From an uncultured Sandaracinaceae bacterium (GTDB lineage: Bacteria > Myxococcota_A > Polyangia > Polyangiales > Houyiibacteriaceae), in NCBI GenBank assembly GCA_964495565.1, contig CAZBWQ010000010.1:3037-67036 (forward strand): 64,000 nucleotides of DNA, written 5' to 3'. A program made the position numbers and the translations under genes. The notes beneath the pieces were generated by a model. It searched no databases. It was given only the letters and a program-made list of their open reading frames with translations, and was not told the origin of the DNA. Numbering within the stretch: the first letter of the stretch is position 1; each line of letters begins with the position of its first letter. Positions 4,734-9,148 of the stretch are shown piece by piece.

Positions 4734-4747
4734 GGCGCACAAAAAAT

Positions 4748-4777
4748 CTCGGGCGAGGTGCGAACACCCCGCCCGAG
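4748..4777. terminator. GC hairpin, possible bidirectional terminator/insulator
   Basis: 8-bp stem ctcgggcg (4748-4755) / cgcccgag (4770-4777), 14-nt loop. An A6 run lies upstream (T-run on the minus strand) and a weak gttgtgttgt tract downstream. Confidence 0.35.
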
Positions 4778-5066
4778 CGCCCGTTGTGTTGTACCCCCAA
4801 GGAGTTCGAATCTCGATTTGCCCTGCCGGAAGGGTTGCTGATCGGCCTACCGACAGTGTTACGGTAAAGCTTCGGAGTTACGGTTGTCAACAGGTATTTT
4901 GTCGCACAATTGTCCAACGGTTCCATGAGGTTGACGGTGCGAGGCCGAGCATTTCTTTCGACGCGTAGCTTCGAGCCGCAGACGCCAGGCCGGCCGAGTG
5001 ACGCGGCCGAAGCGTCCTGCTATCAGCAAGGTACCGGGCGGGCAGAGGGCAAGACGAGAGAGATCG

Positions 5067-5276
5067 ATGAAGAACGACGCGGGGGATAGGAACGAGCTCG
5101 ATCGAGCGAGGCGCCATTTTCTCAAAGCCGCGACCTACACGGCGCCGGCGATTCTCGCGACGATCACCCTGAACAGGGCCCACGCGCAGGCTGCGTCGTG
5201 CAATCCGTCGACCTGCGCGCCTGGGGTATGCAATCCGAACGACTGCATGCCGCTGGCCTGCATGCCCTTCGCCTGA
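5067..5276 (+). CDS. candidate RiPP precursor: twin-arginine-signal peptide with (C-x-P-x-x)x5 core
   Basis: 69 aa from ATG 5067 (GAGAGAG 4-10 nt upstream; GTG 4998 is an alternative start): MKNDAGDRNELDRARRHFLKAATYTAPAILATITLNRAHAQAASCNPSTCAPGVCNPNDCMPLACMPFA. Stop TGA overlaps the rSAM ATG (TGATG at 5274-5278). Confidence 0.6.
   Translation: MKNDAGDRNELDRARRHFLKAATYTAPAILATITLNRAHAQAASCNPSTCAPGVCNPNDCMPLACMPFA
5199..5273 (+). repeat. five contiguous in-register pentapeptide repeats C-x-P-x-x (peptide core)
   Basis: CNPST-CAPGV-CNPND-CMPLA-CMPFA, with invariant Cys1 and Pro3. The repeat runs exactly to the stop codon. tgcaatccg and tgcatgcc are each repeated at DNA level. Confidence 0.9.
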
Positions 5277-6418
5277 TGAGCCTCATGGACGGACGCAAGG
5301 CCGGCTACTTCTTGCCCGACGATTGGATCCTCTGGCAGAGCGAAGGACGGCTCGAAGCCATCCAGCTGAGCAGCGGCGAGCAAATTCGAATCGAGTGCGG
5401 CACGGAGGCAGGCGCGCTGACCGACCGGCTGTCGGCTTCGGTTTGGGATTCGCTCGCCCGATTCGAGCCTCTCGTGGGACAGCTCCGCGCACGACTGCGC
5501 GAGCAGCCTCTGCAACCGCTCACGCGCCAGGCAGTACTGCGCGGCTCCGGGTGGAGGCAGCTCTTCGTCGAGCTCACCAGCAAGTGCAACGAGCAATGCG
5601 TGCACTGCTATGCCGAGTCGTCGCCGCATCGCGTCGAGGCTTTGTCGTGGCCGGAGCTCCAAGGCGTGCTCGAGGACGCCAAGGCATTGGGCTTCGGCTT
5701 GGTGCAGCTCACCGGGGGCGATCCGCTCGTCAGCCCGCATTGCCTTCCGGCGGTGGAGCTCGGCCGCACGCTCGGAATTCCGCAGATCGAAATCTACACC
5801 AACGGGCTCGCACTGCGGGGAACGACCTACGACCGGCTGCGGGCGCTTCGACCGTCGTTTGCTTTTTCCTTCTACTCCCACGACCCCCAAACCCATGACG
5901 CGATCACCCAAACCGCGGGAAGTCATGCCCGCACCACGAGAGCGATTCGACGGGCCGTACGAGACGGGTTGCAGGTCCGAGTCGGCATGATTGCCATGGA
6001 GCAAAACCGAGGCCACGCATCGCGCGCGCGTGCTTACTTGCAAAGCCTCGGGGTAGCTCCTTCCGCGATCCGAATCGATCGAATGCGGGACGTCGGTCGC
6101 GGCCATCCCATGCAATGGGACGACGCCGACGACACGGCGGGCATGCGAGCAGGCGGCGTCGAGAGCGCCAAGCCGAGGAACTTCGGCGGCACGGCTGCGG
6201 TGAGCTACGACGGAAACGTCCATCCTTGCATCTTCAGCCGTCACCTTCTGCTCGGGTCGATCCGAAAGCAAAGCCTCGAAGCCATCCTGACGTCGGTCGA
6301 AGCGGTGGTCCCAGCCAAACGAAAGCTGCTGTCGGCCGCCCAGCAGTGGGAACAGAAGCTGGCCTGCTGGGAGTGCCGGGCCCGCTCTGCTCTGCTCGAC
6401 GGAAGTTACCATGCCTGA
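5276..6418 (+). CDS. radical SAM peptide-modifying enzyme (N-terminal extension; abridged SPASM/twitch-like C-terminus)
   Basis: CX3CX2C = CNEQCVHC (5585-5608) and a QLTGGDPL SAM-binding motif. C-terminal YDGNVHPCIF...LACWEC carries only 3 Cys. Start ATG 5276 chosen because the longer ORF from 5198 overlaps the peptide gene. Confidence 0.85.
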   Translation: MSLMDGRKAGYFLPDDWILWQSEGRLEAIQLSSGEQIRIECGTEAGALTDRLSASVWDSLARFEPLVGQLRARLREQPLQPLTRQAVLRGSGWRQLFVELTSKCNEQCVHCYAESSPHRVEALSWPELQGVLEDAKALGFGLVQLTGGDPLVSPHCLPAVELGRTLGIPQIEIYTNGLALRGTTYDRLRALRPSFAFSFYSHDPQTHDAITQTAGSHARTTRAIRRAVRDGLQVRVGMIAMEQNRGHASRARAYLQSLGVAPSAIRIDRMRDVGRGHPMQWDDADDTAGMRAGGVESAKPRNFGGTAAVSYDGNVHPCIFSRHLLLGSIRKQSLEAILTSVEAVVPAKRKLLSAAQQWEQKLACWECRARSALLDGSYHA

Positions 6419-6710
6419 CGCTTCGGAGCGGCGTGTGCCACGGCGCAAGAATACGCTCACGCACGAAGTCACCGAGACGGACGAAGTCGTGGTCTACGAC
6501 GGCAACCCCGAAAGCCCGCAACTGCTGGTGCTCAACGACACGGCCGCAGGCATTTGGCTCATGATCGACGGAAGCCGATCGGTGGCCGAGATCACGGCCG
6601 AAATTATGCGCCACGTCGACGCCGAACGCGAAACGGTGCTTCGGGACGTCATGGATTTCCTCGATGACCTCGAGCAACGGAAGCTGATCACGTGGAAAGA
6701 GGCCATCTAG
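6411..6710 (+). CDS. PqqD-family peptide chaperone (RRE-type)
   Basis: 99 aa. VVVYDGNPESPQLLVLNDTAAGIWLMIDGSRSVAEITAEIMRHV...VMDFLDDLEQRKLITW is a canonical PqqD pattern. 8-nt overlap with the rSAM gene. Confidence 0.8.
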   Translation: MPDASERRVPRRKNTLTHEVTETDEVVVYDGNPESPQLLVLNDTAAGIWLMIDGSRSVAEITAEIMRHVDAERETVLRDVMDFLDDLEQRKLITWKEAI

Positions 6711-7513
6711 AGAAGCACGAGATCTTTCTTTCCGGGCTTCACGTGAGCATCCGAAGCTCTTGCTCGAGAACCAACCGGTACATCCGGCGACATTGGTCGG
6801 CGGCTGCGTCCCCGATCATCCCTCCCGACTCCAAATGCGACATCGAAGTCATCGCTGACGAGTCACCTCGGATCTCGCTGGATGGAGAGATCGTGTGGGC
6901 GGACGACGACGCCGAGAGCTTGGTTGCTGGTTTCGAGGAACGGCTCTACCGACTTGCATTGGCACGGCACAAGCGCCGGCTTTCCGTGTTTCATGCCGCG
7001 GCGGTCGTCTCGGATGAGGCCACGGTGGTCTTTTCGGGACCCTCCGGCGCCGGCAAGAGCTCACTCGCGCTCGCCGCCGTCCGACGGGGTTGGAGGTACT
7101 TCTCCGACGAGTTCGTGGTGACGGACGGTCTGCGTGTGTGGGGTTGGCCGCGAGCCATCCGGTTCGACGCGCCGGAGGCTGGCGTTCGAACGCCGGACTA
7201 CCTCGAAGGGCTCGACCGCGACGAGGATGCCCTCGTCTCGGAGCCGAATCGAGCGCCACCCTACTATCTCGTCCCGGACCACGCCCTGCAGCGAACGACG
7301 TGCCCGGCGCGTGACGTGCGTTTCATCCGGATCGAGCCCGGTGAGACGACGGAGCTGACCCGCGTTTCGACGAGCGTCGGCCTGGCTCACTGGACCGAAG
7401 CCTCTTTCTTCGAGCCCCCGATGTCCTTGGGCGCGCTCGTGGGGCTCGATCGGACCTGGCACGCATCGTGGCACCACCCCGACGCGCTGATCGACTTGTT
7501 GGAGATCTCATGA
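6692..7513 (+). CDS. HPr-kinase-related (HprK-like) P-loop kinase
   Basis: SVFHAAAVVSDEATVVFSGPSGAGKSSLALAAVRRGWRYFSDEFVV resembles the HprK/P C-terminal kinase core (Walker A GPSGAGKS). Start uncertain: GTG 6692 or in-frame GTG 6743. Confidence 0.7.
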   Translation: MERGHLEKHEIFLSGLHVSIRSSCSRTNRYIRRHWSAAASPIIPPDSKCDIEVIADESPRISLDGEIVWADDDAESLVAGFEERLYRLALARHKRRLSVFHAAAVVSDEATVVFSGPSGAGKSSLALAAVRRGWRYFSDEFVVTDGLRVWGWPRAIRFDAPEAGVRTPDYLEGLDRDEDALVSEPNRAPPYYLVPDHALQRTTCPARDVRFIRIEPGETTELTRVSTSVGLAHWTEASFFEPPMSLGALVGLDRTWHASWHHPDALIDLLEIS

Positions 7514-8286
7514 AGCGCAAGCTCGACATCCGCTATCGCCTGCTGCGGGGTTGGGCTCTGCAGAGTCGCAACACCCAGCACCTCTTGAGGCGTCTCGAGC
7601 GCGCCATGGAAGATTGGACGGGCGCCGTGTTGCGCGCGACGCTCGCCGATCGCGAAAAAGAGATGCTGACCGTCGACCTGTACGACGTGTCCTTTCGTGC
7701 GGAGAACGATCATGACGGACTCTACGAGTGGGAACGGCGGTGGTTCGAACGGCGACTGCCTCGACCCCCGGCGTCGATTCTGGTCGGCGCGGCAGGCGCT
7801 GGTCGGGAAGCAGCCGCGCTTCAGAAGATGGGCTACCAGGTTCATGCATTCGAGCCGTCCGCCTCGGCGTTTCGACTGTGTCGGGAGACCCTCGGCCCCG
7901 ACCACGCCGATCGCGCGAGCTACCGTGATCTGATTGCGACGGTGCTCCTCGGCCAGCCCACGCCCTTGCAGATCGGGCCCGATTCGCGGTTCGATGCCGT
8001 CCTTTTGGGCTGGGGCAGCTTCGGACACGTCCTTCGCCCAGCCGACCGATTCGATTTGTTGCGCGCTTGCGATCGGATCGCGCCCGCCGGCCCCATCCTG
8101 CTGAGCATCTTCCATCCCCAGACCGCAGGTGCCCGTGGCGAGCTTGCGTATACCTCCTGGGGTGGTTTCTTGGCCGCGCCCCCCGTCGAGGAGCTCGAGG
8201 AGCACGCGCGAGCTCTCAATCGAGAGGTCGTCGTGTCACTCGGGACGCCGAGCTGGCACGCCACGTTGATCCCCAGCGCGAAGTAA
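7510..8286 (+). CDS. class I SAM-dependent methyltransferase
   Basis: ATGA overlap with the kinase gene (7510-7513). Motif I-like SILVGAAGAGREAAALQKMGYQVHAFEPS and post-I/II-like FDAVLLGWGSFGHV. Confidence 0.65.
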   Translation: MKRKLDIRYRLLRGWALQSRNTQHLLRRLERAMEDWTGAVLRATLADREKEMLTVDLYDVSFRAENDHDGLYEWERRWFERRLPRPPASILVGAAGAGREAAALQKMGYQVHAFEPSASAFRLCRETLGPDHADRASYRDLIATVLLGQPTPLQIGPDSRFDAVLLGWGSFGHVLRPADRFDLLRACDRIAPAGPILLSIFHPQTAGARGELAYTSWGGFLAAPPVEELEEHARALNREVVVSLGTPSWHATLIPSAK

Positions 8287-9148
8287 CCCCGCGGATGCCA
8301 CGGTGTCCGGCCTCGGCCGCATGCGTCACGAGGGAACGAAGCCCCGCCGGGAGGGACCGGTCGAGCAGATGCGGAGTCCACCAGCGAGGCGATCCGTCGT
8401 GCGTGTCCGCTCCGACGCGCGCCAACACGATCGTCAAGTGGTCGACCCACGAGAGCCGCAACGCGTCGAGCACCGCGCTGGCGACCGGCTCCTCGCGCAC
8501 CGAGTGGTGCCCCAACACGTACCCGGCGGCGCGTCGAAGCCCCGATTGCCGCAGGCGCGCCGCCACCGCGTGTGCATCTCGAACCGAGAGACAAGCTCGT
8601 TGCTGAAGCCATCGAAGGTCCTCGAGGCTCGTATCCCGACGAAACGTGCCGCGTCCCTTCACGAAGTGGCCGACCAGATGCGCGAAGAGATCTTCGTCCG
8701 ACATTCGAGCCACGGGCGCCGCGAAAAGGCCGTCGTCGCGCGACGCTCTCGAAAACACGCTTTCCGTGGACAGTCCGAAGAGACCGTGCGGAAACAGAAA
8801 GGCGTGGACGTCGATGGCGAGCGGCCAAGCGTCGCTCGCGAACGTCGCTCCGGCGCTCGAGCGAACGGTCGGCTCGAATCCGAGCGAGCGCAAGACGGAC
8901 GTCACCGTTTCGAGATCCGAAGGGCGCACGAGGAAGTCGACATCGACGAGATCCCGGCGGCCCCGTAGCGCCGGCCATCGCGCGAGCAAGAGCACTCCCT
9001 TCAACGGCATCAACACGACGCCGCGTGCAGCGCAGGCCTCGATGACGCGATTCGCAAGCGTCAGGGCCAGCTCGTCGACGAGCGCAACTCGAATGTGCTC
9101 TGGCGCACGATCGCTCATGGTCGAAAATATCGATCGCCACGCATGCAT
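8216..9148 (-). CDS. nucleotidyltransferase family protein (NTP_transf_5 / PF14907-like)
   Basis: VVLMPLKGVLLLARWPALRGRRDLVDVDFLVRPSDLETVTSVLRSLGFEP matches the 'uncharacterised nucleotidyltransferase' pattern. Alternative start ATG at 9118. The 3' end overlaps the methyltransferase 3' end by 71 nt. Confidence 0.65.
   Translation of the reverse strand: MHAWRSIFSTMSDRAPEHIRVALVDELALTLANRVIEACAARGVVLMPLKGVLLLARWPALRGRRDLVDVDFLVRPSDLETVTSVLRSLGFEPTVRSSAGATFASDAWPLAIDVHAFLFPHGLFGLSTESVFSRASRDDGLFAAPVARMSDEDLFAHLVGHFVKGRGTFRRDTSLEDLRWLQQRACLSVRDAHAVAARLRQSGLRRAAGYVLGHHSVREEPVASAVLDALRLSWVDHLTIVLARVGADTHDGSPRWWTPHLLDRSLPAGLRSLVTHAAEAGHRGIRGVTSRWGSTWRASSASRVTRRPLD

Follow-up and report, generated by a model that had tools for sequence, protein, structure and literature searches.

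Introduction

The Twitch domain of radical S-adenosylmethionine (SAM) enzymes is a truncated SPASM domain with one cluster, laid out as a beta-hairpin, a cysteine directly after it, a helix and then two cysteines, which ligate the one auxiliary cluster (PMC6231123). In SkfB, the sporulation killing factor sactisynthase of Bacillus subtilis (PDB 6EFN), the auxiliary cluster is held by one cysteine after the hairpin and two after helix alpha2' (CX33CXC) and has an open site; a pre-hairpin cysteine ligand is seen in all other characterised members, and the BtrN cluster is fully ligated (PMC6231123). Open sites are also present in MoaA, whose three-cysteine cluster binds the substrate with its free iron, and in CteB, where the site binds a substrate cysteine (PMC6231123). 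Here we analyse a radical SAM gene that lies, together with genes for a PqqD-family peptide chaperone, an HprK-like protein, a methyltransferase-like protein and a nucleotidyltransferase, in the genome of an uncultured Sandaracinaceae bacterium (assembly GCA_964495565.1, contig CAZBWQ010000010.1). The window, i.e., the whole stretch of DNA that was analysed, is 64,000 nucleotides long, and the positions given below are counted in it unless another locus is named. By homology, the tail of the encoded enzyme is probably a Twitch-type domain with one auxiliary cluster, in which the pre-hairpin cysteine has been lost.

The closest described enzyme is SkfB, which is the best match both by sequence profile and by fold at an identity of about 20%, and which has the same three-part layout, consisting of an N-terminal beta/alpha domain of the peptide-binding type, the SAM-radical core and a Twitch domain. 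The two differ in that SkfB has retained a pre-hairpin cysteine, Cys333, whose place is taken by a Phe in the window protein, in that the ligand spacing CX33CXC of SkfB is replaced by CX45CX2C in the same structural positions, and in that SkfB works without a PqqD, kinase or nucleotidyltransferase partner and acts on a substrate that is unrelated to the window precursor. BtrN and MoaA, like the tail proposed here, have a single auxiliary cluster on a hairpin-plus-helix domain; unlike the window enzyme, they act on small-molecule substrates and have no N-terminal domain, and the BtrN cluster has four cysteine ligands. CteB, SuiB and other SPASM maturases of RiPPs (ribosomally synthesised and post-translationally modified peptides) that carry a fused RiPP recognition element (RRE) are, like SkfB, matched in fold by the full-length model over about 400 columns, but they have a seven-cysteine SPASM domain that holds two auxiliary clusters. 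Precedent for a non-canonical N-terminal domain exists in SuiB, whose RRE leaves the leader unbound (PMC6231123).

The tail of the radical SAM enzyme

The gene is an intact open reading frame at 5276-6418 of the forward strand with 380 codons plus the stop, and an identical protein (P0001) is present in the public collection. In the mechanical list of open reading frames an alternative, longer GTG start is given at 5198; since the N-termini of the homologues begin near M(E/K)RQKTGYFLP, the true start is 5276 or 5285. The protein contains the motif CX3CX2C (CNEQCVHC) at residues 104-111 and matches Pfam Radical_SAM (PF04055) at residues 99-240 with E 1.9e-14 and 54.6 bits, above the gathering cutoff of 29.5, which places it in the radical SAM superfamily. 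Its cysteines are at residues 41, 104, 108, 111, 156, 318, 364 and 367.

Pfam SPASM (PF13186) matches residues 306-367 with 31.3 bits (cutoff 21.5) and is aligned from profile position 7 to position 66 of 67, so that the match begins just past the first SPASM cysteine. Only C318 (in GNVHPC) and C364-W-E-C367 are present in the tail, and none follows C367. In the secondary structure of the AlphaFold2 (AF2) model, a hairpin of strands 304-309 and 314-316 is followed by C318, by helices and by C364xxC367, which is the Twitch layout with the pre-hairpin cysteine missing: its position is occupied by F303, and the slot of the first SPASM cysteine reads F-G-G in an alignment with 32 relatives (43-73% identity). 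The seven-cysteine SPASM motif (CX9-15GX4C, gap, CX2CX5CX3C, gap, C) is absent from the tail, which lacks the last two cysteines of CX2CX5CX3C and the terminal one.

This arrangement is a property of the family. The homologue search with the window protein gave 459 clusters, and an exhaustive profile search gave 945 representatives at E <= 1e-30, with the cysteines counted in 236 full-length members. C104, C108, C111, C318, C364 and C367 are invariant in all 32 aligned relatives, and C318, C364 and C367 are kept in 235-236 of the 236 members, 69 of which, the window protein included, have exactly these three cysteines in the tail. At residue 303, 137 of 263 members have Phe and the others Arg, Trp or Pro, and a cysteine at the canonical pre-hairpin position (302) is found in only 10 of the 236. 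The four tails that were inspected among these 10 belong to a sister clade and show the full seven-cysteine SPASM-type pattern; that of P0248, checked residue by residue, reads ..C..G....C.., CxxCx5CxxC, ..C. An earlier note on this DNA, made from the sequence alone, had described an abridged three-cysteine tail and had warned that further ligands might be hidden by an alignment made by eye. The abridged tail is borne out, and neither the alignment of the 32 relatives nor the census of 236 members revealed another SPASM register with hidden cysteines. The note had also placed the CX3CX2C motif correctly, while its protein length of 381 residues is to be corrected to 380.

By sequence profile, the nearest solved relatives are SkfB (E 2.7e-17), BlsE, which we take to be a Twitch enzyme, MoaA and PqqE, with BtrN lower (E 2.7e-06). 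By fold of the full-length model they are SkfB (E 1.8e-14, 395 columns), BlsE, SuiB, CteB, EpeE and MoaA. With a profile of the tail only, AAVSYDGxVYPC is aligned with the hairpins of anSME and BtrN, C318 standing opposite the BtrN hairpin cysteine, and C364xxC367 is aligned with the CKNC of BtrN, all at a weak E of 0.1-0.5. Among the curated families, the SkfB family TIGR04403 gives the protein 32.8 bits (cutoff 300), and the sactisynthase families AlbA (NF012164) and StsB (NF045574) give it 53.5 against 850 and 50.7 against 625, respectively. The single twitch-like auxiliary cluster that the earlier note had thought probable is thus supported by homology, that is, by the kinship with SkfB, BlsE and MoaA, by the alignment with BtrN and by the three-ligand layout of SkfB.

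Several points weigh against this assignment. The tail alignments with BtrN and anSME are weak, as given above. In full SPASM domains such as that of anSME, the first two cysteines of CX2CX5CX3C ligate auxiliary cluster II and not auxiliary cluster I (Aux I), and therefore the assignment to the Twitch type rests on the analogy with BtrN and SkfB. Relatives often carry additional cysteines in the tail: about 54 have C378, 71 have C308 and 38 have C358. A fourth ligand may be of importance, and in the window protein, with a Tyr at residue 378, a residue other than cysteine could serve as one.

The same facts would also fit a degenerate SPASM domain without an Fe-S cluster, where the three cysteines would be structural (e.g., in a Zn site or a disulfide) and the protein would be a radical SAM enzyme with a single cluster. 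Only three of the seven SPASM cysteines are left, these three derive from two different clusters of the full domain of anSME, and the number and position of the extra cysteines vary across the family. Decay of this kind is hard to reconcile with the retention of the same three cysteines in nearly every member over wide divergence, and with their match to the three ligands of the SkfB cluster and to three of the four ligands in BtrN, and we regard it as quite improbable. Moreover, MoaA functions with a three-cysteine cluster (PMC6231123).

As cluster ligands in the window protein, C156 and C41 were considered and rejected, the former being Leu in 105 of 263 members and the latter not conserved in the family. 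Rejected as the fourth ligand were residue 378, which in addition to being Tyr here is three helical turns from C367, and C308, which falls within the first strand of the hairpin and does not occur in the window clade. In the close relatives with a cysteine at residue 378 (6407-6409 in the window; ..LLEGSCHA), the spacing becomes CX2CX10C.

The N-terminal domain and the PqqD partner

The extension of about 100 residues ahead of the radical SAM core, noticed in the earlier note and forming a domain of about 95 residues in the window protein, is found family-wide: CX3CX2C is at median position 104, and at about 100-130 in most of 70 related loci, compared with 30-44 in outgroup radical SAM proteins. 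In the AF2 models, with a predicted local distance difference test score of 83.8 for the full protein and 82.5 for the isolated domain, four strands (9-13, 17-22, 25-30 and 36-40) are followed by three helices (45-51, 54-63 and 65-76) and by a further helix (84-89) before the first core strand. An RRE is a winged helix, in which an antiparallel sheet of three strands is followed by three helices. The predicted topology keeps this order, with a further strand added at the N-terminus; in SkfB, too, an additional helix comes after the RRE (PMC6231123). The profile alignment with SkfB starts at residue 50 of the window protein, within the N-terminal helices of SkfB. The top three Foldseek matches of the isolated domain in the PDB are the lasso RRE TbiB1 in leader complexes, at E 0.1-0.2 and TM 0.35, which is not significant.

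At the level of sequence profiles the results speak against an RRE. The hhalign comparison of the N-terminal profile with 42 PqqD proteins of the cassettes gave a probability of 0.8%, the same as that of the reversed-sequence control; none of 26 N-terminal domains matches Pfam PqqD; and in the PDB, searched by sequence profile, the domain has chance matches only and no RRE. A Pfam scan of six N-termini of the sister clade also gave nothing relevant. Aligned with PqqD, the N-termini of the sister clade fall into the expected register, but with a pairwise E of 0.011 and a probability of 3.8%, which is too weak to use. Because the match of the isolated domain is not significant and the comparison with PqqD profiles is negative, the RRE-like fold predicted for the N-terminal domain is plausible but unproven. 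The second, built-in peptide-binding domain that the earlier note had considered possible thus fails by profile, while the evidence from the fold leans towards it. The domain could be a second peptide contact, a dock for PqqD, or a vestige as in SuiB.

The same note had asked which enzyme the free PqqD serves. In eight representatives of the sister clade (P0241, P0248, P0252, P0253, P0258, P0260, P0261 and P0262; about 480-560 residues), PqqD is fused C-terminally to the radical SAM-SPASM protein, and these fusions keep about 80-130 residues ahead of the radical SAM domain. Since PqqD is fused to the radical SAM enzyme there, the free PqqD probably serves at least this enzyme, and since the fused clade keeps the extension, the N-terminal domain is not simply a replacement of PqqD. 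The fusion does not exclude use by the kinase, which may employ PqqD as well. An example of the fused form of the cassette is locus L076 (1211-3821), where a homologous precursor gene (..RKVAYAAPAILSS..ASGCGPQNCNPRMNGCNPP) is followed by the fusion gene and then by a gene like HprK-related kinase A (HprK_rel_A 131.7 bits, with a weak ScmC match). The window kinase is 25% identical to the latter and scores 45.4 bits on HprK_rel_A (TIGR04352), below the cutoff of 200.

A different division of labour would be that the N-terminal domain is a true leader-binding RRE, as in SkfB, CteB and AlbA, and that the free PqqD serves the HprK-like kinase, as in the 'HPr-rel-A system' of NCBI. The domain does match the RREs of sactisynthases in size, position and strand-then-helix order, the RRE-leader complexes of TbiB1 top the Foldseek list, the PqqD gene also abuts the kinase gene, and the NCBIfam PqqD model TIGR04353 is named for the HprK-related system (PqqD chaperone with HprK-related kinase A). 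On the other side, the sister clade has fused PqqD to the radical SAM enzyme and not to the kinase, and has retained the N-terminal extension nonetheless; the domain lacks profile similarity to PqqD or RRE families; and the window proteins fall below the cutoffs of both TIGR04352 and TIGR04353. Moreover, radical SAM enzymes that belong to both the fused-RRE and the neighbouring-RRE sets are rare, amounting to 164 of about 15,000 RRE-associated ones (PMC10288494). Taking these points together, we hold this division of labour to be rather doubtful.

The putative precursor peptide

The gene directly upstream encodes the putative precursor peptide, whose homologues are found in about 48 loci, nearly always just upstream of the radical SAM gene. 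The peptide consists of an acidic N-region, ARRHFLK, a hydrophobic stretch with a conserved Y..P, AHAQ and a core, the latter being S-C followed by five C-x4 units (CNPST CAPGV CNPND CMPLA CMPFA). In the precursor alignment (A4), RR and P27 are invariant, RR being kept in 30 of 30 precursors, and L19, Y24, C45, P47, C50, P52, C55 and P57 are near-invariant. The general form of the leader is [acidic]-ARR-x-[FL]-L-[KR]-..-Y-x-x-P-x-[IV]-...-[basic]-A-H-A-Q, and that of the core is S/T-C followed by C-x-P-x-x repeats.

By eye, the window leader shows the features of a twin-arginine translocation (Tat) signal, namely the form S/T-R-R-x-F-L-K, an h-region free of charges, a basic c-region residue and an A-x-A site for cleavage; it reads ARRHFLK, then AATYTAPAILATITL, then NR-AHA-Q. 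These features suggest that the peptide is exported through Tat and cut by signal peptidase at AHA|Q. Curated Tat models, which score below their thresholds, weigh against this part of the reading: TIGR01409, with a cutoff of 16.7, gives 13.0 bits and matches 4 of the 30 precursors, formate_TAT matches 11 of 30 (best E 0.0056) and Pfam TAT_signal matches 3 of 30.

A Ser or Thr stands directly before the first core cysteine in about 27 of the 30 precursors (S44-C45 in the window, 5193-5198). To judge from the alignment, this residue is the best-conserved candidate site for the HprK-like kinase.

Some loci depart from the usual form. At L024 11135, L034 9136, L035 11000 and L063 10192, the precursor gene is located downstream of the enzyme genes instead of upstream of the radical SAM gene. 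Much longer Cys-rich precursors, e.g., ..ACCPCVRNPTSNNCLKERCKLLDCPSCQ.., occur in zetaproteobacterial L039 (7392-7760), L037, L053, L054, L059, L060, L064, L068 and L070; in L039, the one locus of these in which the leader was examined, the long core is preceded by the same RRRLLK..Y.PPAI leader.

A model of peptide maturation

We propose a model in which the radical SAM protein is the maturase of a RiPP-type operon made up of the precursor, the radical SAM enzyme, PqqD, the HprK-like kinase and the methyltransferase, with a convergent nucleotidyltransferase. In the model, C318, C364 and C367 would together ligate a single auxiliary Fe-S cluster at the Aux I (Twitch) position, leaving one iron open. 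The substrate would be the upstream peptide of 69 residues, whose leader would be handed to the enzyme by the stand-alone PqqD, as suggested by the physical fusion of the two proteins in the sister clade. The open iron would then bind the thiolate of a substrate cysteine, as in CteB, and the enzyme would cross-link the cysteines of the C-x-P-x-x repeats to carbon, likely as thioethers. We believe the model, taken as a whole, with only slightly more confidence than doubt. More speculatively, the HprK-like kinase and the nucleotidyltransferase may tailor Ser/Thr, for which the lasso peptides discussed below are a precedent, and the leader may be a real Tat signal that is cut at AHA|Q by signal peptidase.

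The chemical step of the model meets an objection: the thioethers are inferred only from the Cys-rich core and from the sactisynthase-like relatives, and the epimerase EpeE is an equally good fold match. No thioethers would be formed if the enzyme instead carried out epimerisation (EpeE/YydG-like), oxidation of Cys or Pro, or formation of C-C links, the core cysteines then serving the mature peptide in metal binding or in disulfides after export. Such chemistry would agree with the good fold matches to both EpeE and anSME, with the fact that only Cys and Pro are invariant in the core, so that no fixed acceptor is evident, and with the notion that exported Cys/Pro-rich peptides could be metal binders. 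It agrees less well with SkfB, a sactisynthase, being the best relative by sequence and fold, and with the combination of an open-site auxiliary cluster and a Cys-rich substrate, which fits the CteB precedent; alpha-carbon thioethers, moreover, need no fixed acceptor side chain. We therefore give the absence of thioethers an appreciable chance but think it somewhat unlikely.

A bolder extension of the thioether model can also be considered. The leader may double as the Tat signal, with PqqD, and perhaps the N-terminal domain, holding it in the cytoplasm in the manner of Tat proofreading chaperones during the cross-linking and the decoration of Ser/Thr; the general Tat translocase, with signal peptidase I, would take over from the dedicated protease and transporter found in ordinary RiPP clusters, and the SPASM domain would have been reduced to Twitch, from seven to three cysteines, within one cassette type. 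We consider this extension unlikely, and offer it as a speculation. In this connection it is noted that at 710-1144 of the sister-clade locus L077 a gene for a lasso-peptide B2-like protease (NF033537, 76 bits; Pfam Transglut_core3) lies directly upstream of the radical SAM-PqqD fusion, which is a hint that some clades may have a leader protease of their own and would argue against universal processing by signal peptidase.

The cassette and its relation to known systems

The features of the locus are collected in Table 1. The five forward-strand genes are joined by overlaps, with TGATG between the precursor and radical SAM genes, 8 nt between the radical SAM and PqqD genes, and ATGA between the kinase and methyltransferase genes.

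Table 1. Positions in the window, strand and basis of assignment of the features discussed in the text.
Feature	Position	Strand	Basis
Putative precursor peptide gene, 69 residues	5067..5276	+	Homologues beside the radical SAM gene in about 48 loci; stop TGA overlaps the radical SAM ATG
Radical SAM gene, putative peptide maturase, 380 residues	5276..6418	+	List of open reading frames, domain matches, homologue alignment
N-terminal domain, residues 1-92, plausible RRE-like fold	5276..5551	+	AF2 models, Foldseek, SkfB profile alignment
CX3CX2C motif (C104, C108, C111; CNEQCVHC, residues 104-111), SAM-binding [4Fe-4S] cluster	5585..5608	+	Motif, family invariance
Probable Twitch-type remnant of SPASM domain, residues 303-380	6182..6418	+	Pfam SPASM, secondary structure, anSME/BtrN alignments, cysteine census
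C318 codon, after the hairpin	6227-6229	+	Part of the Twitch-type tail
C364/C367, start of the last helix	6365-6376	+	Part of the Twitch-type tail
Stand-alone PqqD-family peptide chaperone, 99 residues	6411..6710	+	Pfam PqqD 61.3 bits; PDB sequence matches TbiB1, PqqD
HprK-like P-loop protein (GPSGAGKSS), putative peptide kinase	6692..7513	+	HPr kinase P-loop aligns in PDB chains
SAM-methyltransferase-like gene	7468..8286, probable ATG 7510	+	Weak Methyltransf_11/12; daptide_MTase (NF041820) 29 bits against cutoff 175
PF14907-type nucleotidyltransferase, convergent with the operon	8216..9148	-	Pfam NTP_transf_5 72.5 bits

The 70 related loci were obtained by a scan of one genome per species, with iterated profile searches for the neighbours. 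They are mostly from Myxococcota (Polyangiales), and also from Zetaproteobacteria (Mariprofundaceae, Ghiorsea), Planctomycetota and a few other lineages. The order radical SAM, PqqD, HprK-like gene is found in nearly every untruncated locus. The PF14907 nucleotidyltransferase is present in many loci, those of Zetaproteobacteria included, and the methyltransferase in the closer clade only.

In NCBIfam the same parts list, i.e., a radical SAM/SPASM enzyme, a PqqD chaperone and an HprK-like P-loop protein, is shared by the SynChlorMet (ScmC/ScmD/ScmE/ScmF), HPr-rel-A and HprK-rel-B systems. ScmF is the top NCBIfam match of the window enzyme (66.7 against a cutoff of 400), and ScmD is among the top matches of its PqqD (29.2 against 100), with PqqD_rel_X at 19.8 against 35. 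The window cassette differs from SynChlorMet in having one radical SAM enzyme and not two, a three-cysteine tail, a Tat-like Cys/Pro-repeat precursor, and scores far below the cutoffs; indeed, no protein of the cassette reaches any NCBIfam cutoff (June 2026 release). The three systems are bioinformatic definitions, for which our literature search found no experimental study, and a search for a cassette of HPr kinase, PqqD and radical SAM enzyme, or for one of Tat and RiPP, found no paper on it. Kinase-linked systems are not mentioned in the paper that defines RREs or in the compendium of radical SAM enzymes (PMC10288494).

Another comparison is with the lasso peptides paeninodin and pseudomycoidin, where an HPr-kinase homologue phosphorylates a Ser of the precursor and a nucleotidyltransferase glycosylates the phosphate (PMC8498205). 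The same kinase/nucleotidyltransferase pair is encoded in the window cassette, which differs from the lasso systems in that it has no lasso cyclase and its core has no C-terminal Ser. Among the cassette loci, the lasso B2-like protease is found only in L077.

Between a gene for an RRM RNA-binding protein and the precursor gene, a stretch of about 180 nt (4734-4915, forward strand) is highly conserved in seven Polyangiales loci, where many alignment columns are invariant. At its start is a terminator-like GC hairpin plus T-tract, and RNAalifold supports only that hairpin; the rest of the stretch has no covariation support and no Rfam match, and the window as a whole gave no match in the Rfam and tRNA scans. 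The element may be a promoter or operator of the cassette.

Conclusions

In the family analysed here, the pre-hairpin cysteine is lost from the gene, which is new, and within one cassette type the reduction from SPASM to Twitch is visible. New too are the constant pairing with PqqD and an HprK-like protein, and the putative Tat-like substrate with Cys/Pro repeats. The cassette occurs widely in Myxococcota, Zetaproteobacteria and Planctomycetota, where cultivation or mining is difficult, and the curated family libraries do not contain it. If it is true that the same enzyme family acts on the long zetaproteobacterial precursors, very different cores would be handled by it.

A general question about peptide-modifying radical SAM enzymes is whether their auxiliary clusters bind the substrate directly. 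A family that lacks the usual fourth ligand, the pre-hairpin cysteine, in hundreds of members would lend itself naturally to testing the idea of an obligatorily open iron, with the seven-cysteine SPASM relatives of the same cassette type as a built-in comparison. Finally, should the Tat-like leader prove to be functional, RiPP maturation would be tied to the general export route of folded proteins.

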